A program made the position numbers and the translations under genes. A DNA stretch of 54,077 nucleotides, taken from the IMG/VR virus record IMGVR_UViG_3300038465_000034; one strand, given 5' to 3'. Numbering within the stretch: the stretch's first letter is position 1; every line of letters starts with the position of its first letter. Below, piece by piece: positions 16,370 through 47,104 of this stretch. The notes beneath the pieces were generated by a model, which worked only from the letters and a program-made list of their open reading frames with translations, searched no databases and was not told the origin of the DNA. The DNA comes from an uncultured virus (IMG/VR IMGVR_UViG_3300038465_000034). Its lineage: Duplodnaviria; Heunggongvirae; Uroviricota; Caudoviricetes.

Positions 16370-16555
16370 ATTTCACCGCTACCGAGATCACTTAATAGAG
16401 CAACACGAGGGGGTAAGCCCCCATACAACTTAATACTCCCCAAGGAGGACTTTGCCCATGAACTTCAGGTTCTTTGGATCAACTGCTGTACCAACCTCAG
16501 GAGGTTGCCAGCCAACAAAAGTCCAGCCATAAAGGGGAGGTGATTCGAATCTACG

Positions 16556-21730: not shown

Positions 21731-22243
21731 TTACAAATTTTGTTGCGCCTGCTTAATGTCTCGCCGAACCTGCCGCACCGATTGAGCGTGATCCGCGAGA
21801 AAGGTCTTCTTTTCTATACCCAAATGGACGAGGATGATTTCTTTCCCCTTAATGTAATCCTCGGGGAAACAGACTGCCTGCCAATCCGTCTGGTTATACT
21901 GATAGGGACTGATCTGGAATTTGTTCAAGGCAGCCAGCGTCTTTTTATCACGACGACTTGACGTGCACCAGAGCGCCCGTCCGTTGCAGCACAGGATGTA
22001 ATCAAACATGTCCACATTGCCCATGTAGTCTTCGGTTCCGCCGCCTCGGTTCACTTCCGTCCACTTGTAGGGGGCGGTGAATTCTTTGCATTCTTTCAGG
22101 TGCTTCTTGGCGGGATAAAACTCGCTGTCCGTCTGCATCATGCCACAGTTGGAGCACACCAGTTCGACATACTCGAATTTGGAGCCGTCAGTCCGTTTGC
22201 CCGCGACGGGCTTCTTGATGAGGCGGGGGCGATAGGATTTCAT
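21731..22243 (-). CDS. hypothetical protein, leaderless, divergent from tRNA operon 1
   Basis: TGGTATCAT-6 nt-ATG; CSNC motif. Confidence 0.55.
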   Translation of the reverse strand: MKSYRPRLIKKPVAGKRTDGSKFEYVELVCSNCGMMQTDSEFYPAKKHLKECKEFTAPYKWTEVNRGGGTEDYMGNVDMFDYILCCNGRALWCTSSRRDKKTLAALNKFQISPYQYNQTDWQAVCFPEDYIKGKEIILVHLGIEKKTFLADHAQSVRQVRRDIKQAQQNL

Positions 22244-22302
22244 ACCTATATGATACCACGAAAAAATAAATTTTGATTTCCTATCCAAAAAGTCAACTTC
22301 CA

Positions 22303-22322
22303 TGGTATTATGTAGAAGTAAG
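22303..22322 (+). promoter_or_regulatory. promoter of tRNA operon 1
   Basis: TGGTATTATGTAGAAGTAAG (extended -10); 19/20 identical to the operon 2 promoter at 43144-43163. Confidence 0.75.
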
Positions 22323-22330
22323 AGGAAAAC

Positions 22331-22453
22331 ATGACTTTGAAAAACGCCAATTCGAAGACCGCCGCACATAAAATGGTGAAGCGCCCGGTCAGATACCAGC
22401 GGAATAATCGCTGGTTCGGCGCAGGTCTGTTTTCTCAGGGTTGGGATGAGTAG
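22331..22453 (+). CDS. putative attenuator leader peptide of tRNA operon 1 (MTLKNANSKTAAHKMVKRPVRYQRNNRWFGAGLFSQGWDE)
   Basis: SD GAGG before ATG 22331 (second in-frame ATG 22373); K/R/Q/N/W/H codons match downstream tRNAs; overlaps alternative hairpins. Confidence 0.75.
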   Translation: MTLKNANSKTAAHKMVKRPVRYQRNNRWFGAGLFSQGWDE

Positions 22454-22481
22454 CTAGAAACCCACCGAACGAGATCAACAG

Positions 22482-22514
22482 ACCCACCGAAAAACGGTGG
22501 GTTTTTGCGTTTTT
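22482..22514 (+). terminator. attenuator terminator before tRNA-Trp
   Basis: ACCCACCG-AAAAA-CGGTGGGT-TTTTGCGTTTTT. Confidence 0.85.
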
Positions 22515-22526
22515 ATTGGAAAATAT

Positions 22527-22602
22527 AGGGGCGTAAGATAACGGCTAGTCGGTCGGTCTCCAAAACCGTACAGTGTGGGTTCGAATCCCTCCGCCCCTGC
22601 CA
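22527..22602 (+). tRNA. tRNA-Trp(CCA)
   Basis: AGGGGCG/CGCCCCT acceptor, CT-CCA-AA loop, TTCGAAT, encoded CCA. Confidence 0.9.
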
Positions 22603-22642
22603 AAATTTAAGTCGCATCGTGAAGCAAACCGATGTGCAGATT

Positions 22643-22722
22643 GTGGTCGTCGGTAGTGCTGGTATGTACCCGCAGCCTGTGAAGCTGTCGTATCGTGGGT
22701 TCAATTCCCACCGACCACCCCA
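22643..22722 (+). tRNA. tRNA-His(GTG), atypical D-arm, no encoded G-1
   Basis: GTGGTCG/CGACCAC, CT-GTG-AA, C73, CCA. Confidence 0.75.
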
Positions 22723-22796
22723 GTTTAGGGCGAGTTGGCCGTGAGTAAGACCAACTTTTAACACGTCAGAGGACGATGTGCCCCGTTTTTAGATGT

Positions 22797-22873
22797 GGTG
22801 ACTGTCGTTTAGGGGCTAAGACCTCTGACTGTGAATCAGATGATCGTCGGTTCGAATCCGACCAGTCACCCCA
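22797..22873 (+). tRNA. tRNA-His(GTG)
   Basis: G-1 + GTGACTG/CAGTCAC, TCTGA-CT-GTG-AA-TCAGA, C73, CCA. Confidence 0.9.
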
Positions 22874-22959
22874 AGTTTCGGCGGGGCGTTTCGGGTAGTA
22901 AAGCTGTAACCGACTCGTAAAGTCTGGCCCACTGCGAGGTCAGGCCCCAAAGTTTAGGC

Positions 22960-23220
22960 ATGAAGGAGTCAAGATTGAACAGCGGGGATGGAAACTCGCC
23001 CAGCGTGCAGCGGAGAACAGGGTCAGTCGCCCCCTCGGGGCTCGATTGGTCCGATGTGCACATCGAGTTTCCATCCTCAAATGGTAGAACTTTAGCGACG
23101 GTTGTTGGCAGTCCGCTAGACCACGACTGCCCAGTGTGTGAAATGCCGAAAGGCATGGCTTGCAAGTCAGCAACAACGCATTACAACCGCGTGAGGCTGA
23201 TTAGAGTTTTAGTCCCGTAA
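22960..23220 (+). CDS. small Zn-finger protein within tRNA array
   Basis: CPVC...C...H..R motif; stop codon lies inside tRNA-Arg(CCG). Confidence 0.5.
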   Translation: MKESRLNSGDGNSPSVQRRTGSVAPSGLDWSDVHIEFPSSNGRTLATVVGSPLDHDCPVCEMPKGMACKSATTHYNRVRLIRVLVP

Positions 23221-23287
23221 CTCAGCGGAATAGAGTACTCGCCTCCGAAGCGAAAAGTCGTGGGTTCGAATCCCACCGGGACTACCA
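23211..23287 (+). tRNA. tRNA-Arg(CCG)
   Basis: AGTCCCG/CGGGACT, CT-CCG-AA, TTCGAAT, CCA. Confidence 0.9.
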
Positions 23288-23339
23288 AGTAGAGGGCTGG
23301 TGCGCTCCCTCCATAACATGCGTACCAAATTTTAGATGT

Positions 23340-23414
23340 GCCTCTGTCGTTCAACGGACAGGATGCGAAGCTACGAACTTCACGATAGTGGTTCGATTCC
23401 ACTCGGGGGCACCA
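23340..23414 (+). tRNA. tRNA-Arg(ACG)
   Basis: GCCTCTG/CGGGGGC, CT-ACG-AA, TTCGATT, CCA. Confidence 0.88.
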
Positions 23415-23421
23415 AGGTTAG

Positions 23422-23512
23422 AAACGTCGAGGTCGGCTGTAGCTCAGCGGTAGAGCAGCCCGCAGGGGAAGGTCGGTGGTTCGAATCCACCCAGCCATAC
23501 GCCGAGACGTTT
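23422..23512 (+). ncRNA. anticodon-less tRNA-like RNA with extended closing stem
   Basis: Perfect D-arm (GCTC-AGCGGTA-GAGC) and T-arm (GGTGG-TTCGAAT-CCACC); anticodon arm reduced to CCC-GCAG-GGG; no CCA. Confidence 0.65.
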
Positions 23513-23578
23513 TTAGGGCAGAGGATAGACAGCGACGGCTGGAACGACGTGAAATCCCTCAAGCCCTCCGGATATTTT

Positions 23579-23654
23579 GGTCCCATCGTACAATGGAACA
23601 GGACACGTGGCTTCGAACCACGAAATGTAGGTTCAAGTCCTACTGGGACCACCA
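23579..23654 (+). tRNA. tRNA-Arg(TCG)
   Basis: GGTCCCA/TGGGACC, CGTGG-CT-TCG-AA-CCACG, CCA. Confidence 0.9.
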
Positions 23655-23661
23655 AAGTTTT

Positions 23662-23747
23662 GCAGGTGTGTCGGCAACGGACGCCACGGGCGCTACGAAC
23701 GCCTAGCCCTTCGGGGAATGCAGGTTCGAGTCCTGTCACTTGCTCCA
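23662..23747 (+). tRNA. tRNA with ACG anticodon and long variable arm (Arg?)
   Basis: GCAGGTG/CACTTGC, CT-ACG-AA, V-arm CCC-TTCG-GGG, U73, CCA. Confidence 0.75.
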
Positions 23748-23759
23748 GTTGGGGGTCGT

Positions 23760-24062
23760 ATGTATAAAGCGTCAAAGATGGTGTTACTTACGGGTCGCGA
23801 TGGGACTGTGCAGTACGGCCAGCCGCGCCACATACCGATGACTGGCTTTGGTGACTACGACATCGTTCCGACCGAAGAGGTTGAGCAGGACGAGGACCCG
23901 GCGGTAGTCGCGGCACGGCACGAGAGGACGATGGCGAAGATCGCCGAGCAGCTTAAGTTCGAAGAGGAATATCGGCTTGAGCGAGGAAGTAAGGCGGGTA
24001 CCACGGTCCACGAATCGGGTTGCCCCTGTGGGTTCTGCAAGGCGGGTTTTACGACAGCATAA
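23760..24062 (+). CDS. hypothetical protein (C-terminal H...CPCGFC)
   Basis: ORF between tRNAs with GGGGG SD. Confidence 0.55.
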   Translation: MYKASKMVLLTGRDGTVQYGQPRHIPMTGFGDYDIVPTEEVEQDEDPAVVAARHERTMAKIAEQLKFEEEYRLERGSKAGTTVHESGCPCGFCKAGFTTA

Positions 24063-24073
24063 ATTTTGAATTT

Positions 24074-24149
24074 AGGGCGTTAGTTCAGTTGGTAGAACGT
24101 CGGCCTCTGAAGCCGAATGTCGGTGGTTCAAACCCATCACGCCCTGCCA
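24074..24149 (+). tRNA. tRNA-Gln(CTG)
   Basis: AGGGCGT/ACGCCCT, TCGGC-CT-CTG-AA-GCCGA, G73, CCA. Confidence 0.85.
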
Positions 24150-24159
24150 AGTTTGATGT

Positions 24160-24237
24160 TCCAGTGTAGGACAATTGGTAGTCTGCTCGGCTGTTACCCG
24201 ATGTATGATGGGGGTTCGAGTCCCTCCGCTGGAGCCA
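24160..24237 (+). tRNA. tRNA-Asn(GTT)
   Basis: TCCAGTG/CGCTGGA, CT-GTT-AC, G73, CCA. Confidence 0.85.
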
Positions 24238-24249
24238 GTATTAAGTAGT

Positions 24250-24639
24250 ATGGGTGCTAACGATAAGAAAAAGCAACAGTTGGGAATGGCAATTGGCACG
24301 GCGAGTGCTCGATTGCGAAAGATGATCCTCTTTGGTTTGGTGCGGCGTTGTGGACTCGATACCTGTTTCCGCTGCGGGAAACAAATCGGTACTGTGGAAG
24401 AATTTTCCATCGAGCATAAGAAAGCTTGGCTCGATGTTTCGATAGACCTGTTCTGGGATTTGGATAACATTGCGTTTTCACACCTAGTATGTAATGTGGC
24501 TACCGCAAGAAAACCACATAAAAAGTATTTCACTGCCGCAGCGTTACGAGAAGCGACGAATAAACGAATCGCTGGTTATGGGCGTAAGGCGTACACGAAA
24601 GAACGACGACGGCAGAAATACTTAAGAACAGGTCATTAA
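24250..24639 (+). CDS. HNH-like endonuclease (paralog of 42225-42752)
   Basis: CFRCG...SIEHKK.W...NIAFSHLVCN. Confidence 0.75.
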   Translation: MGANDKKKQQLGMAIGTASARLRKMILFGLVRRCGLDTCFRCGKQIGTVEEFSIEHKKAWLDVSIDLFWDLDNIAFSHLVCNVATARKPHKKYFTAAALREATNKRIAGYGRKAYTKERRRQKYLRTGH

Positions 24640-24649
24640 GTTTTAATGT

Positions 24650-24724
24650 TCACTCGTAGCTCAGCGTTAGAGCGTTCGCCTGTTAAGCGAAGGGTCGCAG
24701 GTTAGAATCCTGCCGAGTGAGCCA
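24650..24724 (+). tRNA. tRNA-Asn(GTT)
   Basis: TCACTCG/CGAGTGA, TTCGC-CT-GTT-AA-GCGAA, variant T-loop TTAGAAT, CCA. Confidence 0.85.
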
Positions 24725-24975
24725 AGTTTGGATCAGGAGGTCGGCGGTCTCGTACGCAGTGGCAGGTCAGCCAATTAAGTCTCGACGTGGGGTTTGTCAG
24801 GGTCACCCATAAAGCGGTGCTCCTCATGAAGCGGGCAGGAATATCGTGATCGAGCAGGGTTTCGACGGCGACATGGTACGTGCAGCCGCATTCGAGGACG
24901 GTGTAGAAGCATTCCTCGTCGCCCTCGCGGGCCGTGTAGGCTCCAGCTTGCTTCGTACTAATGAATACTGAAGTT

Positions 24976-25053
24976 GAGCGGGTAATTCAACTGGACTAGA
25001 AGCCCAGCCTCTTAAGCTGGAGAATGTGGGTTCAAATCCCACCCTGCTCACCA
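24976..25053 (+). tRNA. tRNA-Lys(CTT)
   Basis: GAGCGGG/CCTGCTC, CCAGC-CT-CTT-AA-GCTGG, CCA. Confidence 0.88.
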
Positions 25054-25074
25054 AATTTTGTGGTATTATGAGCT

Positions 25075-25473
25075 ATGGATAGAAAGGCGCAAGGTGTAAA
25101 GTCGGTCGGCATCATTATGAGTCGGCTGATTGGGATGGGCAAAACCGTCCTGTTGCCAATTGGTGATTGTGAACGTTACGATTTGGTGGTCGATGAAGGC
25201 ACTAAGTTCGTGCGTATTCAGTGCAAGACTGGACGATTAGTCAAGGGCACCCTTCGCTTCAAAGCAGCGAGCACTAACCTTGAGCATGGGAAGTGGACGC
25301 AGAAGGATTATAGAGGACAGGCGGACGTGTTCGGTGTTTACTGTCGGGAGCTTGACAAAGTTTATCTTGTTCCTGTCTCTGAAGTTGGAAGGCGGGAAGG
25401 GTCCTTGAGGATCGAGCCCACTCGGACAACCAACAATGTTCGTTGGGCGAAAGATTTTGAAATGCGGGCGTAG
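25075..25473 (+). CDS. PD-(D/E)XK endonuclease (group I intron-associated/I-Ssp6803I-like family)
   Basis: P.GD.ERYDLVVD...RIQCKTG...Y...AD.F.VY......YLVP. Confidence 0.82.
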   Translation: MDRKAQGVKSVGIIMSRLIGMGKTVLLPIGDCERYDLVVDEGTKFVRIQCKTGRLVKGTLRFKAASTNLEHGKWTQKDYRGQADVFGVYCRELDKVYLVPVSEVGRREGSLRIEPTRTTNNVRWAKDFEMRA

Positions 25474-25539
25474 CTCAGTTGGTAGAGCACTCGCCTCTTA
25501 AGCGAAGGGTCGGCGGTTCGATCCCGTCCGCCCGCACCA
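25464..25539 (+). tRNA. tRNA-Lys(CTT)
   Basis: GCGGGCG/CGCCCGC, CT-CTT-AA, CCA. Confidence 0.92.
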
Positions 25540-25545
25540 AGTTTA

Positions 25546-25595
25546 GACGTACCGCAGGGCGTTTCACGTAGGTTCGAATCCTACCGCGCCGACCA
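25546..25595 (+). pseudogene. 3' half tRNA remnant (T-arm + acceptor strand + CCA)
   Basis: GTAGG-TTCGAAT-CCTAC-CGCGCCG-A-CCA with no matching 5' half. Confidence 0.55.
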
Positions 25596-25624
25596 AATTT
25601 TGAGTTTTGTGGTATTGTAAATAG

Positions 25625-26101
25625 ATGGACGCTTTAGACCATCTGTTGGATACTGGCGAATTGCATTGGACAGCCCAAGACATGGCGCTCGACGATTTTG
25701 TCGATAGCGACAATTGGTTCTTGAATCGGGACGATGTACCCGAACCGACTTTGAATGAGTTGAAGTTCCCGCTGACGGTGTATCGGGCGGTGAAGCTCAC
25801 GAACGGCATGGTAGACCTAAAGACCGAGGGGGTGGGGATTTACTGGACGTATAGCCCTCGGGTCGCGGAACATTGGATGTTCCCCACGAGGCCGGTGTGG
25901 ATACTTCGAGCAACAGCGGAGTACGATCAGGTAGATTGGGGGAAGACCCGAGACCTGAACACAAAGTTTGAAGTAGAACGAGAGATTAGGCTTCTGGCAG
26001 GAGCTAGGCTGCGGATCAATGCGTACAAGCGCAGACACAGCACAAGCTTCCTGACGTTCTCGGAAGATTGGGAACATGACGGACTGGAAGCAATAGCGTA
26101 A
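25625..26101 (+). CDS. putative ADP-ribosyltransferase-fold protein
   Basis: LTVYRAV...GIYWT.S..VA..W...E.EREI.L resembles the R-S-ExE ART arrangement. Confidence 0.5.
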   Translation: MDALDHLLDTGELHWTAQDMALDDFVDSDNWFLNRDDVPEPTLNELKFPLTVYRAVKLTNGMVDLKTEGVGIYWTYSPRVAEHWMFPTRPVWILRATAEYDQVDWGKTRDLNTKFEVEREIRLLAGARLRINAYKRRHSTSFLTFSEDWEHDGLEAIA

Positions 26102-26105
26102 GTTT

Positions 26106-26181
26106 GGATCGGTAGCTCAATTGGCAGAGCAACAGACTCTTAATCTGAAGGTTGTGGGTTCAATTCCCACCCGGTTCACCA
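26106..26181 (+). tRNA. tRNA-Lys(CTT)
   Basis: GGATCGG/CCGGTTC, CT-CTT-AA, CCA. Confidence 0.9.
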
Positions 26182-26187
26182 ATTTCT

Positions 26188-26388
26188 ATGCGTAGGACGT
26201 GCCCCAGTTGTCTCGGCGATGACGCGGCAAAGCGCGAAGGTCGGAACTTTGACCCGCTCTACGGCACCGTCGAAATCTACTGCACGTACTGTGGGTCCTT
26301 CGTGGACATGCTCTGGCGCTGGCAGACGAGCGACAGCGTGTGGCAGAAGTTCAGGGATCAAGCAAAGTTCGGGTTAGCTCAAGGTTAG
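26188..26388 (+). CDS. small Zn-ribbon protein
   Basis: CPSC...CTYC. Confidence 0.5.
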   Translation: MRRTCPSCLGDDAAKREGRNFDPLYGTVEIYCTYCGSFVDMLWRWQTSDSVWQKFRDQAKFGLAQG

Positions 26389-26444
26389 GCAGAGCAGCCG
26401 CGCAAGCGGAAGACTGGCGGGTTCGAATCCCACCCCCTAAACCA
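26368..26444 (+). ncRNA. anticodon-less tRNA-like RNA (GCAA tetraloop in place of the anticodon loop)
   Basis: GCTC...GAGC D-arm, CCGC-GCAA-GCGG, GGG-TTCGAAT-CCC, weak acceptor, ACCA. Confidence 0.6.
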
Positions 26445-26553
26445 TTACGGGTGTCAAGAATAGGGTGACAGACGGCACCAACCGTTGCGGGTTCAACGAC
26501 CGCCCCGTGATTTTGACTTTTAGAACGCTAGATAGAAGGGAATACAGTGATTT

Positions 26554-27144
26554 ATGCATGACACTCTCGTACTCGACATGAACTGGACGCCTGTAGGCTT
26601 CTGCACGTGGCAGAACGCCGTAAAGCTCATCTGGGAAGAGCGGGCTCACGTCGTCAAGGAAGACGAAGCGGGCAAGGTTTTAAGGTCGCCCTCGTTCTCC
26701 ATGGGGATGCCAAGGGTCATCGTGGTCCGTAACGCTTGGACAAAGCGCCGTCGCCAAGCTGTGCCTTTCAGCCGCCGCAACATTGCGGTAAGGGACAACA
26801 GTGAGTGCCAATACACGGGACGTTGGGAAAGGGATGGCGGGCCTCGTTACTGGGTGCCGTGTGGCGAAGTGCTGCAAACGCACCAGTACACGCTGGATCA
26901 CGTTACCCCACGTTCACAGGGCGGTGTGAGTTCTTGGACGAACCTCGTTCTCGCTTGCATTTACTGCAACAAGGCAAAGGCGGGTATGACGCCCAAGCAA
27001 GCTGGTATGCAACTTCGGCATAAGCCTGTTGAACCGAAGGTAAATGACCCGAAGTACAACTTCAAGCTCCACATTCGGAAGCTGCGTCCCGAATGGAAAG
27101 AGTGGACTAGCTGGCTGTACTGGAACGCGATTCTTGACGCATAG
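26554..27144 (+). CDS. HNH endonuclease (McrA-like/HNH_5 type)
   Basis: LVLD..W.P.....W..A...PRVI...FSRRNI..RD...CQY...TLDHV.PRSQGG.SSW.NLV.AC..CN..K...TP..AGM.L. Confidence 0.88.
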   Translation: MHDTLVLDMNWTPVGFCTWQNAVKLIWEERAHVVKEDEAGKVLRSPSFSMGMPRVIVVRNAWTKRRRQAVPFSRRNIAVRDNSECQYTGRWERDGGPRYWVPCGEVLQTHQYTLDHVTPRSQGGVSSWTNLVLACIYCNKAKAGMTPKQAGMQLRHKPVEPKVNDPKYNFKLHIRKLRPEWKEWTSWLYWNAILDA

Positions 27145-27269
27145 GACATTCCCGTACGGTAACATTCGAGTGTTATCGTGCGGGAAATCCTGAAATGTTA
27201 CCGAACGGGAATGATTGGATGCACGATAGGTTGCCTGAGAAGGAACGTTCCGTGCACAGGGTATAATTC

Positions 27270-27521
27270 ATGGCAGGTATACCGCATATCCGAGGCTGCT
27301 GGTTTTGTCTGCTGAATAAGTTGGTGGTGATCTTCGGCTTTGGTGCGATTGGGATTGTTTGCGTCTGTGCCATGGTCTGGGATGCGGCCCACCACCACTA
27401 CCTGACGGCGGGCAAGGATTTCGTTACCTACCTCATAGCTTTCATGGCTATCAGCGTGGTGCCGAAGCTGATAGATGGCTGGTCGGGGCTTCTGAACAGG
27501 GTGCTGCCTGATGGTAAGTGA
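27270..27521 (+). CDS. small membrane protein
   Basis: Two hydrophobic segments; TATAAT upstream. Confidence 0.5.
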   Translation: MAGIPHIRGCWFCLLNKLVVIFGFGAIGIVCVCAMVWDAAHHHYLTAGKDFVTYLIAFMAISVVPKLIDGWSGLLNRVLPDGK

Positions 27522-27702
27522 TCTTCAGGCACTATCGAAAGCATTAACAGAAGGTGCCGCTTGCTACGACAGGCAGGCGGACAAGGAATTGACCGACCTC
27601 ATCATGCGGGATCAAGTGAGGATCGAAGAAGAATTGAATCGAGACGGACAGACAATCGTCACGTTTCGTGGGTGTCCTTACAAGATAGCCCGAAAAGTTT
27701 GA
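27511..27702 (+). CDS. hypothetical protein
   Basis: Stop TGA overlaps the first bases of tRNA-Arg(CCT). Confidence 0.5.
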   Translation: MVSDLQALSKALTEGAACYDRQADKELTDLIMRDQVRIEEELNRDGQTIVTFRGCPYKIARKV

Positions 27703-27786
27703 CCTCGTAGTCTAGCGGACGAAGGCACCTGTTTCCTAAACAGGAGGCGAAAGCCATCGCAGGTTCGAATCCTGCCGAGGTCACCA
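27701..27786 (+). tRNA. tRNA-Arg(CCT) with long variable arm
   Basis: GACCTCG/CGAGGTC, CCTGT-TT-CCT-AA-ACAGG, V-arm GGC-GAAA-GCC, A73, CCA. Confidence 0.85.
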
Positions 27787-28353
27787 GTTTGTGGTTTTAG
27801 GATAACAATGTTCGATGTAAGCTTTAACGACGTGCTAGACGAATTTCTCGCTCAGTTGACGGGCGAGGACGGTATTAGGTTGCAGGAGGCTAAAGATGCC
27901 CGCAACAACGAGGACGTGGCGCTAAAAGAGATTGTAGTACCATGAAGCTGAGGGAATTCACCATCATCGCGTTGCCATTTCCTCAATCGGAGGCAACCTC
28001 GACGTACACGGAGTACGCGGTCGATGATGAGGCGGCTTTGAAACAGTTTCAAGCTCGATACCCGCTATGGCGGGTCAAGGAAGTAACGGAACGATGAATC
28101 GAACGTTAAAAAACGTTCTACTTGTCGGACTGACGCTAGTCGTCCCCGGTGCGGGGCTGGCATGGCTCATAAAAATCGCCAAAAGCGATCCTGACAAAGA
28201 TTTTAAGCGGTATGTTGAACATAGGTTCAACAAGATGAAAGCAGAAGAACAACCATGGCTCCAATGAACCTCAACCCGACCGCAACGCCGTGGCCTATCA
28301 CGGCAACGCCGATCCTCGTCGCCAGACGAAAACGCTAACCACAATTCGCGTGT

Positions 28354-28436
28354 GGGCGTTTAGTCGAGGCACTCCTCTAAAGTGTTATCCGTAAGCGGAA
28401 CTGAAAATGCAGGTTCGAATCCTGTAGCGCCCTCCA
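28354..28436 (+). ncRNA. aberrant tRNA-like RNA (no D-arm; TCT-containing loop)
   Basis: GGGCGTT/AGCGCCC acceptor, perfect T-arm, T-CCA end; internal hairpins GCACT-CCTCTAA-AGTGT and TCCG-TAAG-CGGA. Confidence 0.6.
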
Positions 28437-28442
28437 AATTTT

Positions 28443-28535
28443 CCCAGTGTAATTCAACGGAAAATCGCCGAAAGGTGAAGAAGCCCGGGCCTTTACCCCG
28501 GAGAATGGGGGTTCGAATCCCTCCAACTGGGACCA
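28443..28535 (+). tRNA. atypical tRNA-Lys(TTT)-like with hairpin inserted in the D-loop
   Basis: TCGCC-GAAA-GGTGA in D-loop; CCGGG-CCTTTAC-CCCGG; bulged acceptor; ACCA. Confidence 0.6.
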
Positions 28536-28536
28536 T

Positions 28537-28611
28537 GGGAGCGTAGCTTAATGGTAAAGCTACTGCCTTTTAAGCAGATAGATGGGGGTTCGACTCCCTC
28601 CGCTCCCACCA
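28537..28611 (+). tRNA. tRNA-Lys(TTT)
   Basis: GGGAGCG/CGCTCCC, CT-TTT-AA, CCA. Confidence 0.92.
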
Positions 28612-31477: not shown

Positions 31478-32419
31478 TTAGTCCTCCGCTCGGATTGCCA
31501 AATCGATCATGGCGAGCTTAACAACAGACTCGTCACGCCATTCTTCCCACGCTGGGTGCCCATCCGCTCGCTCGTCAGCCCGTAGGTGACCCGCAATCCA
31601 GCGGCAGGCAAGCTCAACCGCCCGAGCCAGAATGCGGTTGGTAGCGTCCCCCTCGTGTCCCCAAACTTTGAGGTAGAGTTTGGTCAAGTACCGCGAAACA
31701 GCCTCGCGATCAGTTTGATCGGGTAGGGAGGATTCTGCCTGTGCCCTATCCAGATCGGCAAACAAGGTGTCCGTCATATCCTTGAGGAATGCCTGATCGT
31801 ACTTGCCCTCTCGAACGGCAATCAGCAGGCTCTTGTTCGGACGCGGGTAGGTGATCTCACCAGCCTGCATGAGTTCAATTCCCTCGCCGAGGAGCCGCAT
31901 AACATGCATGGCAGCCTTGGTATCGAAGCCGAACTTCTCCTCAAGCTCGGGACGTTGACCGTGCTTGCCCTGCCCGCGTTCACCCATGTACCGCTGACGC
32001 TGGGCCATGGCAAATCCCCTGAATTGCTCCGCACACGCCTTGGATAGAAAAATTCTCCGCATGTTCCGTACATCGTCCCACAGATCAGTGACATCCAGCG
32101 TGTTCTCGGCGAAGAGGTACGACAGACAAGTCGGATTCCCGCCCGAGGCGAGCTTCGCCCACTTCCGCAGCGAGTAGAAGCAGATGTCCATGTCGCCGGG
32201 AACATTCCGCTTCGTATCGCCCGCAGACGACCACACGTAGTGGGGGTAGTCCTTGAGCCCGATGACCATCTCTGGCGGTTCGACGTAAACGCCATACCAG
32301 TCGTCATCGTGCTTGTTCACAAGTTGCGCCCCATGGAGATCGGACCCACCCCTGAACAGATGGATCAGGTTGCTGGTGTAAGGGAACTTGTTCGCCTTGA
32401 GTTGTTCAAGTAGGTCCAT
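31478..32419 (-). CDS. nucleotidyltransferase, DNA polymerase beta superfamily (RlaP/Nuc-transf-like)
   Basis: GGSDLHG...DDDWYGVY, D...YSLRKW..L...GNP...LF, FDTKAAMHVMRLL. Confidence 0.85.
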   Translation of the reverse strand: MDLLEQLKANKFPYTSNLIHLFRGGSDLHGAQLVNKHDDDWYGVYVEPPEMVIGLKDYPHYVWSSAGDTKRNVPGDMDICFYSLRKWAKLASGGNPTCLSYLFAENTLDVTDLWDDVRNMRRIFLSKACAEQFRGFAMAQRQRYMGERGQGKHGQRPELEEKFGFDTKAAMHVMRLLGEGIELMQAGEITYPRPNKSLLIAVREGKYDQAFLKDMTDTLFADLDRAQAESSLPDQTDREAVSRYLTKLYLKVWGHEGDATNRILARAVELACRWIAGHLRADERADGHPAWEEWRDESVVKLAMIDLAIRAED

Positions 32420-40008: not shown

Positions 40009-41578
40009 TCTGTTCTCCTATTGTGTGAACTACTATATCACGAAATACGAACTAACGCTACTACAACGTATAACCTCATACTGCTCTCCAGAAATCCCAT
40101 TTGTGTTTCATGCGGTGCTTGTTTGGAAGGGTCGTCACTCGCCAAACCCAGTTGCGGAGACCGAAGAAACGATTTGGAACCAACCGATGTACTTGATCCA
40201 GTCTTAGCGGGATCGAAGGCACGTGGTTGTCTTTCAGGAACTCTTCTTGGACGCCCCAATCCACATATATTTCGCGGATGTGTTCTAATCTGCCGCGATA
40301 GGGCTCGGGAATCTCGGGACCCGGAATCCCGTTTTCGTAGAGGATTGTGCGGAACAAACTGCACGCTCCCCAGAAGCTATGGTAAGAACCTTCGTCAAAC
40401 GACCCGTCCGGGTGCTGTGCTTGGATGTCTTCCAGCAGGTAGGGGATCGCCCGCATTCCGAGTTGATTCTTGATGAACTGGTAGCTCGGATGGTCGGTCT
40501 TTGTCATGCTCAGGACGGCGGTGTCATCTGAGTATTGATCCATGTGCGCGTCGTACATCTCCCGAGTGGTTAACTGGTATGGTTTCTTCGGCTCGTCCGT
40601 GACGTTCGGCCAAAACCTTCCGTATTTTTCAAGCCATTCTGCGCTCGGGTCCATTAACTCCTCCAAATTTGAAACAAAGCATCTACCGTCAGTATAACAC
40701 CACTCGCCAATCCAGCCAAGCACCACGCCTTACCGCGAGGATCATACCTGCTGGCAGTCCTTATCAGACCACAGCTTCCCGCAGACCTTACAGCCCCCGC
40801 GTGACGGCTGAACACCCGTCAAATCCTCGGCCTTCACGATGTGCCAAGTCTGGATGCGGGCGGTCTCCTCGGTTCTCCACTCCTCCATCACAACCGAGCG
40901 GGCGATGCCCATGTTGGCCTTCTTGGTGATGAACCGATGCGGCACTTCGATGTCCACCGTCATCGTGACGCGGATGACCTTGCTCGGCCCAACGATCTTC
41001 GGGTGCTCGTCGGTCAGGTAGCAGCGATAGGGATCAAGTCCATACCGTCTCTCCAGCAGGTCGATGAGGAACCTCGGCAGCTTCACTTTTTCACCCTGAG
41101 GTCGTTCAAAGCTTGCTCCCGGGTTTTCGATATGAGCGCCACTTGCAGGTTTTCCTTGATGTGCTGTGGGCAGTATATAAAGCCCCGCTTCACTGGATAG
41201 TTGCATCGGATGGTGTGGGGCTCATACCTACAACGCTGCTTCGGCCTCACCCTGCCGATTAGCCGCCGTGTCAGCCGTTCCGCCGCACGTATTTGCTCGT
41301 ACAATGATCTCATACCCAAAACCCCGTGTCTCCGTCGTGCCTGTTGACGAACTCGTCCACTAGGTGCGACTTATCTACAATCCGCTTCGGTATGCGGCAG
41401 CGAAGCGTGGCCGCGAAATACTCGCCGCCGTAAACCCATCGGGCTCCCGGCGTATACGACGAGACCTCATCTTCGAACTCGAAGGTGGTGTATTTCTTGT
41501 CGTCGTCGAAATTGTGAATCACTATAGGATAATACCACGCGGCGGGAAAATATGGAAGAGGCTCACAAGTGCTAAATT

Positions 41579-41673
41579 TGGTGCCCCCACTAGGATTCGA
41601 ACCTAGATCGCACTCTAATCTAGAGTTAACTACGGCTTATAAGGCCGGGGTTTTGCCGTTAAACTACAGGGGC
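41579..41673 (-). tRNA. tRNA-Ile(TAT) with long variable arm
   Basis: GCCCCTG/TGGGGGC, CGGC-CT-TAT-AA-GCCG, V-arm ACTCT-AGATT-AGAGT, A73, CCA. Confidence 0.85.
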
Positions 41674-41682
41674 ATTAAAATT

Positions 41683-41768
41683 TGGTGCGGTAGGCGGGAT
41701 TCGAACCCGCAAGCCCGAAGGCAAGGCGTTTTAAGTGCCTCGTGTATGCCAATTCCAGCCACTACCGC
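41683..41768 (-). tRNA. tRNA-Leu(TAA)
   Basis: GCGGTAG/CTACCGC, CT-TAA-AA, V-arm GCC-TTCG-GGC, A73, CCA. Confidence 0.9.
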
Positions 41769-42070
41769 AAAATCCAATGAATCACGAAGTAAGCCGCTGT
41801 CAAAAATCCGCTGGCAATCAAGATACGGTTGCGGTACAGCCACAGGCGAATCGACTTGCTCGGTCGCCGCGTAGCGTACCTCGGGGCTTCACGCTTCTTG
41901 TATGCCGCGTACTTGCGGTACTCCTCTTCACTTTCCGCTTCTGTTGAGGGCGGGCACACGCTGCAAAATATCTTCGGGTACGGGGCAAATTTCCCCGTGC
42001 TCTCGTGTGTCTTCCAGTCAACGTGGATATGAGCAGTAGCGTCTTCGACGCATGGTTCGTAAGGCTTCAT
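41762..42070 (-). CDS. hypothetical protein with C-terminal TM, leaderless
   Basis: TATCAT-5 nt-ATG; stop lies in the tRNA-Leu acceptor stem. Confidence 0.5.
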   Translation of the reverse strand: MKPYEPCVEDATAHIHVDWKTHESTGKFAPYPKIFCSVCPPSTEAESEEEYRKYAAYKKREAPRYATRRPSKSIRLWLYRNRILIASGFLTAAYFVIHWILR

Positions 42071-42167
42071 ACCCTATGATACTACAAACTTTGATTTTCT
42101 GCTTCTCATATCCCTTGCGGGTCACGAGGCCAAACATCGGCACACATTAGGCACGTGAGATCAAATC

Positions 42168-42261
42168 TGGCGGTGAGCGGCAGAGTTGAACTGCCAATGC
42201 CCCATCTCTGAAGCATAGCCGTTTTCAAGACGGTCGGACTTGCCCATGTACCAAGCTCACC
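42168..42261 (-). tRNA. tRNA-Ser(TGA)
   Basis: GGTGAGC/GCTCACC, CT-TGA-AA, long V-arm, G73, CCA. Confidence 0.85.
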
Positions 42262-42752
42262 GAACTGGCGGTAGGAGGGAGAGTTGAACTCCCAATGCCC
42301 GTAGGCATAACTGTTTTCGAGACAGTCGGACTTGCCAATGTGCCAACCCTACCAAACTTTTTCTTACGCAATCCCTTTTGCCAACGCCATTCGTTGTTAT
42401 AAGCAACGTGAGCGTCTGTGCACGGCTTACAACGACAACCCAGAGTGTACAGGCCGTGTGTTCCATGCCTGCCAGTCTTTGGCGTCCTTCGAGCCGCCTT
42501 GTTGCACTTACGGTGCGAGTACGCAATGTTGTCTTCCGCCCAGAAAAGCTGCGGATCAACGTCGAGCCAATCCTTCTTGTGCTCAATGGAAAGCTCGCTG
42601 GCCTTCTCGATCAGTTTGCCGCATTTGAAACAAACGTTGTCGCCTAGCTTTACCAGCAGTCCGAAAAACAGGCGTTGCTTGAGGCGGTTACTCGCTGTGC
42701 CGAACGGCATTCCAAGTTGCTCGGCTTTCTTACAATTCGCATTAGTATCCAT
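42225..42752 (-). CDS. HNH-like endonuclease (paralog of 24250-24639)
   Basis: QLGM..GTAS.RL...CFKCG...SIEHKK.W...NIAYSHRKCN plus HGT...Y..GCRC..C module; frame continues through tRNA-Ser(CGA). Confidence 0.75.
   Translation of the reverse strand: MDTNANCKKAEQLGMPFGTASNRLKQRLFFGLLVKLGDNVCFKCGKLIEKASELSIEHKKDWLDVDPQLFWAEDNIAYSHRKCNKAARRTPKTGRHGTHGLYTLGCRCKPCTDAHVAYNNEWRWQKGLRKKKFGRVGTLASPTVSKTVMPTGIGSSTLPPTASSVSLVHGQVRPS
42266..42353 (-). tRNA. tRNA-Ser(CGA)
   Basis: GGTAGGG/TCCTACC, CT-CGA-AA, V-arm ATGCC-TAC-GGGCAT, G73, CCA. Confidence 0.88.
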
Positions 42753-42771
42753 GCGATTTAATACTCAAATT

Positions 42772-42863
42772 TGGCGGAGAGTAGAGGATTCGAACCTCTG
42801 ATCCCGCTTGCGCGGGATACACGCTTTCCAAGCGTGCGGCATAAACCACTCGCCCAACTCTCC
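42772..42863 (-). tRNA. tRNA-Ser(GGA)
   Basis: GGAGAGT/ACTCTCC, CACGC-TT-GGA-AA-GCGTG, long V-arm, G73, CCA. Confidence 0.92.
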
Positions 42864-42864
42864 A

Positions 42865-42958
42865 TGGCGGAGACGCCGAGATTCGAACTCGGACTCGGGG
42901 CTCTTAACCCCGAGGACAGGGTAGCAACCTGCTGCGATTCCAGTTACGCCACGTCTCC
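42865..42958 (-). tRNA. tRNA-Ser(GCT)
   Basis: GGAGACG/CGTCTCC, TT-GCT-AC, long V-arm, G73, CCA. Confidence 0.9.
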
Positions 42959-42970
42959 AAAATTTCGTAC

Positions 42971-43002
42971 AAAAACACAAACGCCGCCCTTGTTTGGCGG
43001 CG
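42971..43002 (-). terminator. attenuator terminator before tRNA-Ser(GCT)
   Basis: CGCCGCC-AAACAAG-GGCGGCG-TTTGTGTTTTT on the minus strand. Confidence 0.82.
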
Positions 43003-43036
43003 GCTCGGTGAATCTAATCTGCTTGTTTTCAGATAC

Positions 43037-43108
43037 TTACAAGCACACACCGATGCCGTCGCCCCGTGAGGAGCTACTCGATAACGATGATATGCTGATA
43101 GCGATCAT
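43037..43108 (-). CDS. putative Ser-rich attenuator leader peptide (MIAISISSLSSSSSRGDGIGVCL)
   Basis: 8 Ser codons in codons 5-14 plus ATA and TTA; 3' part is complementary to the terminator 5' arm. Confidence 0.8.
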   Translation of the reverse strand: MIAISISSLSSSSSRGDGIGVCL

Positions 43109-43143
43109 TTTGTGTGTCCGGTCTTACCTTGTTGCGGTAAATC

Positions 43144-43163
43144 CTTACTTCTATATAATACCA
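43144..43163 (-). promoter_or_regulatory. promoter of tRNA operon 2
   Basis: TGGTATTATATAGAAGTAAG, near-identical to 22303-22322. Confidence 0.75.
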
Positions 43164-44937
43164 CGGAAGTCGAGAAAACAGCTAGGAATTTGCAAAGAAA
43201 TTTTTCAGCGCCTCGCCAACTCTTCATCCAGCGGTAATCGCTGCATCATGGCGAGTGCGACATCCTGTTCTTTTGGGGTCAGTGTTTCCCAGTGAGCGAG
43301 GTAGTAGTCGCAAACTTCTGTGGCGATGGCGTTGCGCTCACGGCGAGCGACCTTTATGTCTTCGAGAGGAGCGTCCAACTCTTTAAGAGCTTCGAGCCTG
43401 TAGATGACGCCCCACCAACGGTAATAGAACGGTTCGGGGATGTGGGGTTTCATATCAGGACCAGATCGTGTTCTTTTCCTTGAGGCCGCACTGCTCACAG
43501 TGGCGTACCTGATGAGTCACGTAATGGGCGAAGCAGCCCGCCTTCGTCCACGGATACCTGACGGCAAACCTCTGCCCATCTACCCACGGTCCCCACGTGT
43601 GCACCCAATGCCATTCGTGCATCTTCCTGCGAACAAGTTCAGCGGGGCGCATGAAACCGTAGTAGGTCACCCACCACACGGCGAGACGAAGCGGTGCCTC
43701 TTTCGGCGTGCTGCGATTGCTCGGATGTGAGGGGCAGATGACTTGCTTCTCTGCTCCGTCGCACATTCCCGTGTTGATAAGTTCACAAAGGCAACTTTGT
43801 CTCATTCTTCCTCTCCGTCGTCACTCAAGAAGTCGATGGCATCTCGAACGTCGCCGCCCTCGTTCTCTATGTGCCAGTACACGTCTTTGAGCCGCTGGGT
43901 GTTGGCATAGAGCCAATCGAGCCTCTGGCTGTCGCTCATCATACTTTCAGCCCTCTGTACTTCTCAGGCCGCTGTGCGGGATCAGGATGGTTCCAGTTTA
44001 TCAATTCGTCCCACGTCTCGGGAGCGGGAACTTTTGGATCGTACTTCGGATTCGCACAACAGCAGGACGGACATTCCTCGATCCATGGATTCAACCCGCA
44101 GTCCTTATCGTGGCACTTGTGATCGCATTTGAATCCCACCGTCAGCAAATCCCCCTCGATTGACTTCCGAGAAAACTCTCGGGTTTCGTGTTCCCAATCC
44201 GCGAACCTGTTGAAATCCCTCATCAGAACATCGATTCTGACGGCGGGATGCCGCCCTTTGGAACTAAGATGATGTGATCCTTCGTCCCCTCTTTGCCACG
44301 GGTCGGCAGCGTGCTGTGGTGCCACAAATAGCGACACGCAAAGTCATGACCTTCCTTACTACCGAAGCCGCAATAGAAACAGCGAAACGTCGCGCCCGAC
44401 ACAACGCAGGGCTCGGCCTCAATATAAACGGGGAGCCAGCCGCCGAGCTTCTCCTGCTTCTCACGTCTCACGGTATTTGGGTGTGCGTTCATGGTTTCGC
44501 TTCCTCGCAGTCATTGACATACACGTGCCGCCAGCCCTTCGGGGCGGTTTCTTTCATGAGCATAAACATGCGTTGACGCTCCCCAATCGGCTTCTTGCAC
44601 TGTTCGCAGGTGAAGACGCCATCCTTCGACCACGAAGTCGCCGACGAGGGAGTGGTGATGAAAGCCCCGGGCTCTTCCTGAATCGTAAAGTCGATGTTTC
44701 GCAGATTGGGACGGGCTGTGCGTGCCGTAGTTTTCTTCGTCTTCATTTTGTATTCTCCTGTTTCAGATTTGCTTTCATAGTCCCCCCGCCAACCTACTTA
44801 GATTGATCGCGGCTCGGATCAATTCGTACAGACCAAACCCCACCAACATCACCCAGAAGAAACCGATCTGGGTGTGGTGCACACCCGTCTCACGGTCGCC
44901 CCAGCAGAGTCCCTGCGTGCTAATCCAGAACTGCCAC

Positions 44938-46315: not shown

Positions 46316-47104
46316 TCATGCCTTGACTTTCTCCTTCTTTTCCTGCCGCTCCACGTCGTAGTAATCGTGGATCGTGTAGTAGCTATCCGGTTCCGTCAGC
46401 CAATGCAGCGGCTTGCTCGGGTCCACCGTCTTCGGCTTCTCGTCTTCCTCGGGCACCATGAATTCGCGAAGGTAGGCAATCATCCCATACCAACCGCTTA
46501 TGTCGGTGATGTAGCGGTCATTGTTATCTTCACCGCTGTGGGTGACGACGGCGATGGGGTTGCTGGCAAACCAGACGGTAGCGATCTCGAAACTCTCATC
46601 GCTGCCCATGTATTCGTCCACCAGATACTTGAGTTTGACCAGCCCCGCCGTCTCGATCTCTTCCCACCTTTTGTAGTCGTGCAGGCAAATCTCTTCCTCG
46701 CCCAGCCACTTTTCCAGACGGTCGGTGCGGGAGAAATCATCTCGAATGGGTTTCAAGGCGTAGAGTTCGTTGGGGGTGAAGACCTTCTTGGCGTACTTCG
46801 CCTTCAATTCGGCGACGTAGGTGTCAGCTTCTTTTGCAGAACACAGGCCGCCACACACGATGCGACCACGGAAGGCGTCATCGAACGCACGGTAATGAAG
46901 TTCGATACGCTCGGATGGGGTGATGACATCGGCGATAGTCCACATCACCCCCGCAGTGTAGCCCTCATTCTTGAGTTTGGCACAGATGAAATTGCGGGCT
47001 TCATCGAAATTGTTCAAGCTGTGGGTAAAATCGGGCTCTTCGATGCCCTCGTAGTCCTTCCACATCCAAATGTTCAAAGAATCATGTGCCTTAGTCAGTT
47101 TCAT
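46316..47104 (-). CDS. hypothetical protein
   Basis: GC3-biased ORF coupled to ligA (ATGA). Confidence 0.65.
   Translation of the reverse strand: MKLTKAHDSLNIWMWKDYEGIEEPDFTHSLNNFDEARNFICAKLKNEGYTAGVMWTIADVITPSERIELHYRAFDDAFRGRIVCGGLCSAKEADTYVAELKAKYAKKVFTPNELYALKPIRDDFSRTDRLEKWLGEEEICLHDYKRWEEIETAGLVKLKYLVDEYMGSDESFEIATVWFASNPIAVVTHSGEDNNDRYITDISGWYGMIAYLREFMVPEEDEKPKTVDPSKPLHWLTEPDSYYTIHDYYDVERQEKKEKVKA

Follow-up and report, generated by a model that had tools for sequence, protein, structure and literature searches.

Codon-matched leader reading frames and terminators ahead of the tRNA operons of an uncultured phage and its relatives: a probable set of ribosome-mediated attenuators

A 54,077-nt stretch of DNA from an uncultured phage (Caudoviricetes; IMG/VR record IMGVR_UViG_3300038465_000034), referred to here as the window, is part of a large phage genome and carries 21 tRNA genes in total according to ARAGORN. 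On its minus strand, an extended -10 promoter, an open reading frame (ORF) of 23 codons and an intrinsic terminator lie in front of a cluster of tRNA genes for Ser, Leu and Ile (Table 1), and a preliminary description of this DNA had proposed that these elements form a leader-peptide attenuator controlling the tRNA operon. The promoter, the ORF, the terminator and the six tRNAs were all recovered where they had been placed, with ARAGORN, Rfam and the ORF listing in agreement and with every one of the six tRNAs being a tRNA-clan match in Rfam. The leader ORF (43108-43037) has no longer version because an in-frame TAA lies 18 nt upstream. Downstream, the stem of the terminator ends 23 nt before tRNA-Ser(GCT), and its T tract ends about 11 nt before it. 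When the codon set of this operon is defined as the nine codons read by the six downstream tRNAs, the leader contains a run of 10 consecutive own-set codons (43096-43067), which is the longest in all six frames of the window, the runner-up being 6. Among 300 Markov shuffles of the window the longest own-set run was 8 (5/300), and a run of 10 was found in 0/300.

The second tRNA cluster of the window, on the plus strand, is an internal replicate that bears out the core of this proposal, as it has the same promoter core, a matched ORF and a terminator. This module, which serves tRNAs for Trp, His, Arg, Gln, Asn and Lys, is called K-type below. Its leader takes 16 of its 39 codons from its own set, which places it fifth among 775 small ORFs (p 3.5e-3), versus 3 of 39 from the Ser set, and the Ser leader takes 11 of its 22 codons from its own set versus 1 of 22 from the K-type set.

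The main result is that leader composition follows operon content, across operons and across phages. The region upstream of every tRNA cluster was examined in three further records, namely G002 (140 kb, behind contig L021), G003 (43 kb, behind contig L022) and G004 (187 kb, a further ligase relative). Together with the window, their operon heads uncut by a contig end give 11 leaders; one G002 cluster (Ala/Glu/Gly) and the sole cluster of another record, G001, whose contig begins inside it, were left out as cut off. In 11 of these 11 complete heads, the leader ORF over-represents the amino acids served by its operon (p from 2.5e-7 to 1.6e-2 each), and strict wobble codon sets give p from 8e-7 to 5e-2 for the same leaders. 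In a matrix of leaders against operon codon sets, high values fall in blocks of like operons; a 4x4 leader-by-codon-set table of independent types gives a chi-square of 50.4 (p 9e-8), and a Fisher combination across five operon types gives p 5e-12. Own-set codon runs reach 11 in the K-type leader of G003 and 12 in that of G004. In the Tyr/Leu leader of G002, CTC, CTA, TTG, CTG and CTT are present and TTA is absent, and Leu-UAA is located in the Ser operon. With all 11 heads matched to their own amino acids, the core of the earlier proposal, a codon-matched leader ORF and a terminator gating a tRNA operon, is supported.

Two metagenome contigs, L012 and L013, contain a block of about 200 nt that is about 97% identical to the window from the A/T block to just before the terminator; around it, the gene upstream defies alignment, and similarity between the tRNA genes is only about 50-60%. 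Relative to the window, the leader ORF of these contigs has two non-synonymous changes, and the sole indels (2 nt and 1 nt) lie in the 5' untranslated region (UTR). Because the untranslated parts of the block are conserved too, it does not discriminate coding from RNA-level constraint. More distant copies are found in two viral contigs, L021 and L022, which were identified via an NAD ligase 54-57% identical to that of the window. Their leader peptides, MKNTLSISSSSTSSSSWTGGGVVNV in L021 and MKNMISISSSSSSSSTSGWDGMGVCA in L022, are both syntenic, downstream of the NAD ligase, and their ORFs of 25-26 codons start 6-9 nt after the -10 box of the same promoter type and are followed by a terminator and then tRNA-Ser. 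Here the nucleotide sequences are unlike that of the window, and the Ser run is kept with ATA (both) and TTA (L021). The ATG and stop codon of the leader are retained in L012, L013, L021 and L022, so that the frame proposed earlier is conserved in its homologs, and it is the leader frame alone that keeps both in every Ser-type copy. Two leaders start 6 nt after the -10 box, as do ordinary leaderless genes of the phage. In the four Ser-containing leaders, every one of the four Ser isoacceptor classes is represented (joint chance 0.05), ATA accounts for 5 of 8 Ile codons (background 0.118, p 9e-4) and TTA for 3 of 9 Leu codons (background 0.038, p 4e-3).

Table 1. Features of the two leader modules of the window, and leader ORFs of further tRNA operons in related records
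Record	Feature	Position	Strand	Basis or remarks
Window, Ser-type	A/T-rich upstream block and GACTTCC element just 5' of the -10 region	43164..43204	-	about 97% identical in L012/L013; similar block before the other window tRNA operon and before leaders in G002, G003 and G004
Window, Ser-type	Extended -10 promoter TGGTATTAT	43155..43163	-	motif count against shuffles
Window, Ser-type	5' UTR with small hairpin (about 43144-43121) and A/C-rich stretch before ATG; no Shine-Dalgarno sequence	43109..43148	-	sequence and predicted fold
Window, Ser-type	Leader ORF MIAISISSLSSSSSRGDGIGVCL, 23 codons and TAA, ATG start	43037..43108	-	ORF listing; sole frame with conserved ATG and stop in window, L012, L021 and L022
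Window, Ser-type	Regulatory run, codons 5-14: 8 Ser (all four isoacceptor classes), one ATA, one TTA	43067..43096	-	all read by the six downstream tRNAs
Window, Ser-type	Small '1:2' hairpin over the last Ser codons	43061..43074	-	minimum free energy (MFE) structure of full leader; analogous hairpins of other sequence in L022 and L021
Window, Ser-type	G-rich 'region 2' inside ORF, codons 15-20, predicted to be able to pair with terminator 5' arm	43048..43063	-	duplex prediction; not significant against shuffles
Window, Ser-type	Inner hairpin containing the stop codon	43020..43045	-	predicted fold; same-place hairpins in L021/L022 with different stem sequences
Window, Ser-type	Intrinsic terminator: 7 G-C pairs, 7-nt loop, T-rich tail; stem 43002-42982	42969..43002	-	stem differs in L012/L013, pairing kept
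Window, Ser-type	tRNA cluster: Ser-GCT (42958-42865), Ser-GGA (42863-42772), ORF (42752-42225), Ser-CGA (42353-42266), Ser-TGA (42261-42168), ORF (42070-41762), Leu-TAA (41768-41683), Ile-TAT (41673-41579)	41579..42958	-	ARAGORN, Rfam
Window, K-type	Promoter block of the Trp/His/Arg/Gln/Asn/Lys operon	22263..22311	+	same core of about 30 nt around TGGTATTAT (22303-22311 and flanks) as at 43163
Window, K-type	Leader ORF MTLKNANSKTAAHKMVKRPVRYQRNNRWFGAGLFSQGWDE, 40 codons, preceded by a Shine-Dalgarno sequence	22331..22453	+	16/39 codons read by downstream tRNAs
Window, K-type	Intrinsic terminator, stem 22480-22504 and T tail; 22 nt before tRNA-Trp (22527)	22480..22516	+	terminator prediction
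Window, K-type	tRNA cluster: Trp, His x2, Arg x5, Gln, Asn x2, Lys x4, with endonuclease-like ORFs interspersed	22527..28611	+	ARAGORN, Pfam, Rfam
G002	Leader of Tyr/Leu operon, MNRLSHNTTLGLSLYYLLSSGLVLSDRPS			
G002	Leader of Pro/Met/Phe operon, MKFTSPNPSFPPCPTLHGPDL			
G003	Leader of Trp/His/Arg/Asn/Met/Gln/Lys operon, MTMKQTNSMRQWQKRNHRRATGLCSVMRDIKW			
G004	Leader of operon of the same kind as in G003 (Trp/His/Arg/Asn/Met/Gln/Lys), VKQIQTNSMRQHKQWQRNQHAIGGLDSGGSA			
G004	Leader of Val/Gly/Asp/Ala/Glu operon, MKSMVEFVGAVATVVAAEAAEGVDTGHLSLVRIS			
G004	Leader of merged Tyr/Leu/Ser operon, MRLLSLSSSPSLSSYYLSLPSGSVARWRGI			
G004	Leader of Pro/Phe operon, MRMRPTFRFRPQPARLAEG			

For the K-type leader, metagenome protein searches gave eight further distinct peptides of 30-40 residues, encoded on contigs of 1.2-18.8 kb. 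Only M1, T2 and a block QRNNRW are invariant among the K-type peptides, with RKHQG present in most, and the conserved blocks contain no amino acids other than the six served by the downstream tRNAs of the window. Across the nine peptides, the length varies between the conserved N-terminal and QRNNRW blocks and the frame is maintained, which argues for translation. The K-type leaders of G003 and G004 appear to be related to that of the window, as judged only by eye from a shared start and composition. A profile of the nine peptides found no match in G001, G002 or G003 (0/3), missing the K-type leader of G003; a two-sequence K-type alignment search matched 48 stretches, of which 0 were confirmed; and when 50,697 phage records were searched by tblastn with two K-type peptides, one peptide gave 4 matches at E values of 6-8 and the other none. 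By blastn, 6 of these phage records matched, through a tRNA only (11-15% of the query) and with none covering the leader. Among distant ligase relatives, L041 (ligase 29% identical) has a tRNA cluster after the ligase and no convincing matched leader in the 1 kb read, and G005 (ligase 45% identical, AT-rich) has about 30 tRNAs ungrouped by amino acid and no module in the 600 nt before the first of them. These two are without a clear module, and the leader system may be limited to one lineage. G005 also carries a gene for transfer-messenger RNA (L058 3964-4345).

A terminator survey covered 12 leaders, that is, the 11 described above and that of L012. A canonical intrinsic terminator is present in 10 of the 12, starting 19-38 nt after the stop codon. 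The gap from its end to the first tRNA is 8-30 nt; in G003 the gap is to an HNH-like ORF inserted ahead of tRNA-Trp (L032 12797-13125). Because a terminator 8-30 nt before the first tRNA leaves no space for another promoter, tRNA synthesis would require read-through. In all 8 leaders tested, the best predicted partner of the terminator 5' arm lies inside the ORF just past the regulatory run (-8.2 to -15.8 kcal/mol, with -12.2 to -17.2 kcal/mol for the terminator arms themselves), and this position in the model is the geometry expected of an attenuator. For the window, the predicted region 2 duplex has -15.3 kcal/mol versus -15.1 kcal/mol for the terminator arms, and the pairing of region 2 with the 5' arm is the MFE pairing when the transcript is cut before the 3' arm. 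The structures claimed in the preliminary description, namely a hairpin over the last Ser codons, an inner stem at the stop codon and pairing of 43063-43048 with 43010-42996, all occur among the predicted structures. A motif resembling AAGTA(A) marks the 5' end of both window leaders, and three Ser-type leaders have it in the loop of their post-stop hairpin (window 43148-43141 and 43039-43031; L022 about 16400-16407; L021 about 12547-12556).

Switching was modelled at equilibrium by moving a 28-nt ribosome footprint codon by codon along the leader, with kinetics ignored. For L022, the predicted terminator probability is 0.93 in the free transcript, falls to 0.01-0.08 with the A site on Ser codons 9, 10, 12 and 13 and is 0.95 beyond, a pattern matched by 0/30 shuffles. 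The Val/Gly/Asp/Ala/Glu leader of G004 likewise gives a strong predicted switch and four others give partial drops. In all, 6 of 10 leaders fall under 0.5 somewhere.

The promoter motif TGGTATTAT, with up to one mismatch, has 15 copies in the window versus 4.3 expected, a count reached by 0/100 shuffles. The motif lies upstream of most genes, and TGGTAT[TAC]AT appears to be the general promoter type of this phage. An ATG or GTG lies 5-6 nt after most copies in the window, which points to widespread leaderless mRNAs (promoter positions of this type are 50363, 49242, 41537, 25061, 25610, 22258, 21133 and 13185, and G001 and G002 have the same habit), and such wide use may point to the host group. 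Many genes of this phage are likewise without a Shine-Dalgarno sequence. The tRNA-operon promoters are a subclass in which GGTATTAT is preceded, at 3-5 nt, by a GACTT(Y)C-like element and, farther upstream, by an A/T-rich block, both missing from ordinary promoters of the phage; its sites are at 43164-43204 and 22263-22302 in the window, about 16260-16300 in L022 and about 12410-12450 in L021, and in L028, L027 and L032. Used as search patterns against viral contigs, the promoter core and the two leader cores gave 0 matches each. The promoter pattern gave 2 unrelated matches without tRNAs among genome contigs, and 11 loci among metagenome contigs, of which 2 are identical to the window, 2 are true relatives and 7 are unrelated AT-rich chance matches.

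Overall, we consider it probable (roughly 0.7) that the element in front of the Ser operon is a ribosome-mediated transcription attenuator that senses the supply of cognate tRNA ahead of a phage tRNA operon, and that it is one of a set with one member per operon. The anatomy, the codon and amino-acid matching, the recurrence over operons and phages and the conservation of the frame are the observations from which this reading starts. That the ORF is translated, that transcription ends at the hairpin, which way the switch works and what triggers it physiologically are inferred, and the mechanism would operate as follows. A strong phage promoter would start a transcript that opens with a short ORF, the middle of which would present a run of codons decoded by the tRNAs encoded downstream. 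When the cognate charged tRNAs are abundant, the ribosome would traverse the ORF and cover its G-rich 3' part, upon which the terminator would fold and transcription would stop. When they are scarce, owing to a poor host pool or to destruction of tRNAs in infection, the ribosome would stall in the run, the G-rich segment would be left free to pair with the terminator 5' arm, and RNA polymerase would read into the tRNA genes. The new tRNAs would then lift the stall, a negative feedback, and since the loop yields the very tRNAs that it senses, it would be self-limiting. Cleavage by host anticodon nucleases is a plausible, though speculative, trigger. In addition, we lean somewhat toward the broader view that this phage lineage runs its whole tRNA complement as demand-controlled modules, each operon being gated by a leader written in the codons of its group and making only the tRNAs that are missing.

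Several observations weigh against the attenuator reading, and some of these concern the codon match. Plain enrichment does not single out the Ser leader, as at least 6 of the 775 small ORFs of the window score higher, owing to the abundance of Ser and Leu in antisense frames; G002 even has, at another place, a run of 13 Ser-set codons that is simply an acidic tract read in antisense. On account of this control and this run, the codon match of the Ser leader is by itself suggestive and inconclusive. Simple codon enrichment was dropped as proof, since antisense small ORFs score equally high. The K-type leader of the window holds AGA, yet there is no Arg-UCU tRNA in the window; ATA is retained in the L012/L013 leaders, with Ile-UAU tRNA not found in the contig parts examined; the L022 leader is without TTA although Leu-UAA sits in its operon; and the merged Tyr/Leu/Ser leader of G004 has 7 TCN codons, yet Ser-GCU is the sole Ser tRNA found. 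Because of these mismatches in L012/L013, L022, G004 and the K-type leader of the window, matching is by amino-acid group and not strictly codon by tRNA. The earlier claim of one leader codon per downstream tRNA therefore stands for the window (all four Ser classes, ATA and TTA) and fails in some relatives, and the comparison of leader codons with tRNA content in the window and related phages upheld the match by amino acid in 11 of 11 leaders while turning up codon-to-tRNA mismatches in some of these phages. Furthermore, distal tRNAs may escape leader control because endonuclease ORFs within the clusters have their own promoter-like sites (25061, 25610).

Other points concern the switch and the coding status of the leader. 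Both Pro/Phe leaders are without a canonical terminator. When the transcript is made to end before the 3' arm, the predicted pairing probability of the 5' arm is 0.70-0.85, which 5%-41% of shuffled leaders equal, and for the window 16% of 150 dinucleotide shuffles pair the 5' arm equally well. Leaders given foreign terminator arms often pair as well as with their own, so that there is no clean covariation, and the L012/L013 leaders pair worst with their own arm. In the masking model 4 of 10 leaders never fall under 0.5, and the Ser leader of the window goes from 0.85 in the free state to a minimum of 0.64, with 3/30 shuffles equal. Since the model ignores kinetics, these results neither establish nor exclude a switch in the window. 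The antiterminator claimed in the preliminary description thus exists as a predicted pairing, but it is no stronger than in shuffled leaders and gives almost no switch at equilibrium. With regard to translation, the Ser leader of the window has a 5' UTR of 40-47 nt without a Shine-Dalgarno sequence, and the identity of about 97% throughout the L012/L013 block points to RNA-level constraint or recent exchange and is silent on coding.

The leading alternative is that a strong promoter and a constitutively leaky terminator set the tRNA level, the ORF having no regulatory role and owing its composition to another reason, for example a functional small peptide. A modelled terminator probability of at least 0.64 at every ribosome position of the window leader and an antiterminator potential not above that of shuffles would suit a leaky terminator, and the partly conserved C-terminal parts (the peptides of the window and L022 end in G-x-G-V-C, and the K-type family has GLFS..GWD) would suit a peptide. 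We nevertheless regard this as unlikely, because it leaves unexplained both the enrichment of 11 of 11 leaders for their own and not for other operons and the merged leader of the merged Tyr/Leu/Ser operon.

It is improbable that the block of about 200 nt acts as RNA without translation, either as a small RNA with its own terminator or as a riboregulator binding tRNAs or a protein. Such a role would fit the conservation of the whole block in L012/L013, including the 5' UTR and the region after the stop codon, the perfect 8-bp hairpin predicted for the QRNNRW codons of the second leader and the missing Shine-Dalgarno sequence of the Ser leader. The full leader also folds better than shuffles (z -3.78, 1/200 shuffles equal), but its fold without the terminator is unremarkable (z -1.35), and none of the Rfam families, among them T-box and the known leaders, matches at E up to 1. 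Moreover, L021 and L022 retain the ORF and its composition in a different nucleotide sequence, the frame survives length changes in the nine K-type peptides, and some leaders start as leaderless ORFs, like ordinary genes.

There is also a slim chance that the terminators are timing devices, overridden by a processive antitermination factor of the phage or by a modified RNA polymerase, so that the tRNA operons would come on at a fixed point of infection, independently of the leader ORF. The special upstream element on all tRNA-operon promoters, missing from ordinary ones, could mark a site at which such a factor is loaded, and two Pro/Phe operons work without a canonical terminator. However, no antiterminator protein is among the Pfam matches (13 of 28 scanned ORFs), and codon matching would be left without a reason. 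Finally, the notion that the Ser run is the antisense shadow of a plus-strand gene or acidic tract, and the minus-strand ORF an artefact, is barely credible and was rejected on comparison of the plus-strand frame across leader copies: in 3 of 4 copies this frame stays open, for 152 (window), 67 (L012) and 95 (L021) residues, and would encode an acidic peptide, which counts against the attenuator, and the 13-codon run of G002 is such an artefact, but the frame would cross tRNA genes, terminator and promoter in antisense, has a stop in L022 with 29 residues left open, lies between flanks unconserved between the window and L012/L013, and leaves unexplained the leaders of K-type, Tyr/Leu, Pro/Phe and GNN operons, as most of these are interrupted by stops in the antisense frame.

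Some further features of the operons and of the phages should be noted. In these phages, tRNAs that share an operon belong to one codon or amino-acid group or to one tRNA type, as with the long-arm Tyr, Leu and Ser tRNAs, and one G004 operon (L049 17494-19723 and L050 57-223) has tRNAs only for Val, Gly, Asp, Ala and Glu, which are all GNN codon families. The window tRNA called Ile-UAU (41579-41673, minus strand) is 95 nt long with a long variable arm, unusual for a tRNA-Ile, and its amino-acid identity is uncertain; its counterpart in G003 (L022 17857-17935) is 79 nt long. ORFs resembling HNH and PD-(D/E)XK endonucleases lie among the tRNA genes of the window (24175-24639, 25075-25473 and 26554-27144, plus strand; 42225-42752, minus strand), some with their own promoter-like site. 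Two tRNA-like sequences that ARAGORN did not call are recognized by Rfam (23433-23499 and 28354-28433, plus strand; 42.5 and 29.2 bits), and three more are tRNA-like by eye from a T-arm motif (25546-25595, 26370-26440 and 28440-28535), possibly degenerate or unusual tRNAs. One small neighbouring protein of the window used as query led to one relative, G001, and a second such query to none. G001 has a lone tRNA with a CUA anticodon (L017 12362-12436, minus strand), called Pyl by ARAGORN and possibly an amber suppressor. The NAD-ligase homologue of G003 is split into two ORFs (L022 9977-10894 and 11820-12782, plus strand) with a 323-residue antisense ORF between them, which may be an insertion. 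In the window, the Pfam matches comprise Ku, ATP- and NAD-dependent ligases, RlaP, ADP-ribosylglycohydrolase, M24 peptidase and HNH and PD-(D/E)XK endonucleases; the repair and RNA-repair gene set (ATP ligase, Ku, ADP-ribosylglycohydrolase, M24 peptidase, RlaP and NAD ligase) lies at 347-1588, 6621-7637, 15341-16369, 18216-19112, 31478-32419 and 47101-49227 (minus strand).

The purpose of phage tRNAs has been debated for decades, between codon compensation and replacement of tRNAs destroyed by host defences, and to our knowledge the regulation of phage tRNA genes is almost unexplored. If the attenuator reading is true, the tRNAs of these phages are expressed on demand, and the leader reveals which shortage the phage expects, which would make this debate testable. 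The phage would then gauge the decoding capacity of the infected cell for each codon family, whether a shortfall is caused by a mismatched host pool or by anticodon-nuclease cleavage. Classical attenuation would be extended from amino-acid biosynthesis to tRNAs as a direct autoregulatory loop, and no attenuator before it would have had the very tRNA that it senses as its product. The sorting of operons by amino-acid group, for example all GNN decoders, would gain a rationale because each group needs one sensor. With mixed-codon leaders tuned to multi-tRNA operons, such modules would form a natural multi-channel sensor of tRNA availability and could provide compact sensors for defined tRNA sets.

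Known systems offer several points of comparison. An Rfam cmscan of 40500-44500 at E up to 1 gave tRNA-clan matches and two weak unrelated ones, with no His, Leu, Thr or Trp leader or T-box, and 22200-28800 at E up to 0.01 gave tRNA-clan matches and two weak ones to an unrelated plastid cis-regulatory family, antisense to tRNA genes. A full-text literature search found no account of leader-peptide control of phage or bacterial tRNA genes; most subscription journals were outside its coverage, so that this absence is no proof. Proposed roles of phage tRNAs, as treated in the available parts of three papers, include codon compensation and making up for tRNAs lost to cleavage by host anticodon nucleases, retron or PARIS systems (PMC10264068, PMC11464382, PMC10287673); these parts deal with tRNA function and not with transcription control, and mention no leader ORF. 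The literature, as far as its text was available, also covers phage tRNAs countering such defences and a toxin that cuts tRNA-Ser. The window resembles other large-phage tRNA clusters in that big arrays occur in lytic phages with homing-endonuclease genes interspersed. Lys, Asn, His, Arg and Ser tRNAs are among the known nuclease targets.

The T-box is alike in that the state of a specific tRNA is sensed and a terminator or antiterminator is switched before translation-related genes, but it binds uncharged tRNA directly via a specifier codon and the T-box sequence, without translation, whereas the phage module has a conserved ORF and no T-box match. The pheM leader of pheST, which encodes phenylalanyl-tRNA synthetase, is an attenuator of a component of the translation apparatus and not of a biosynthetic enzyme, a target similar in kind to that of the phage module; it differs in serving a synthetase gene, in using a single amino acid and in being chromosomal. 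The closest framework is that of trpL, hisL, leuL, thrL, ilvL and pheL, the ribosome-mediated attenuators of amino-acid biosynthetic operons. The phage module shares with the trpL/hisL type a promoter-proximal short ORF, a regulatory codon run, an intrinsic terminator, possible pairing of an ORF segment with the terminator 5' arm and the logic of sensing ribosome speed (for such attenuators, see the available parts of PMC1183508 and PMC3082878). Unlike that type, it would control tRNA genes and not enzymes, so that the product fed back is the sensed molecule, and each of its leaders mixes the codons of several amino acids, as many as seven, in keeping with an operon of several tRNAs. It is also phage-borne, forms a paralogous set with one module per operon, lies in some cases on leaderless mRNAs and has no Rfam leader match. 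The class of mechanism is therefore classical, while its use on tRNA operons, through a modular set of mixed-codon leaders, appears to be new.

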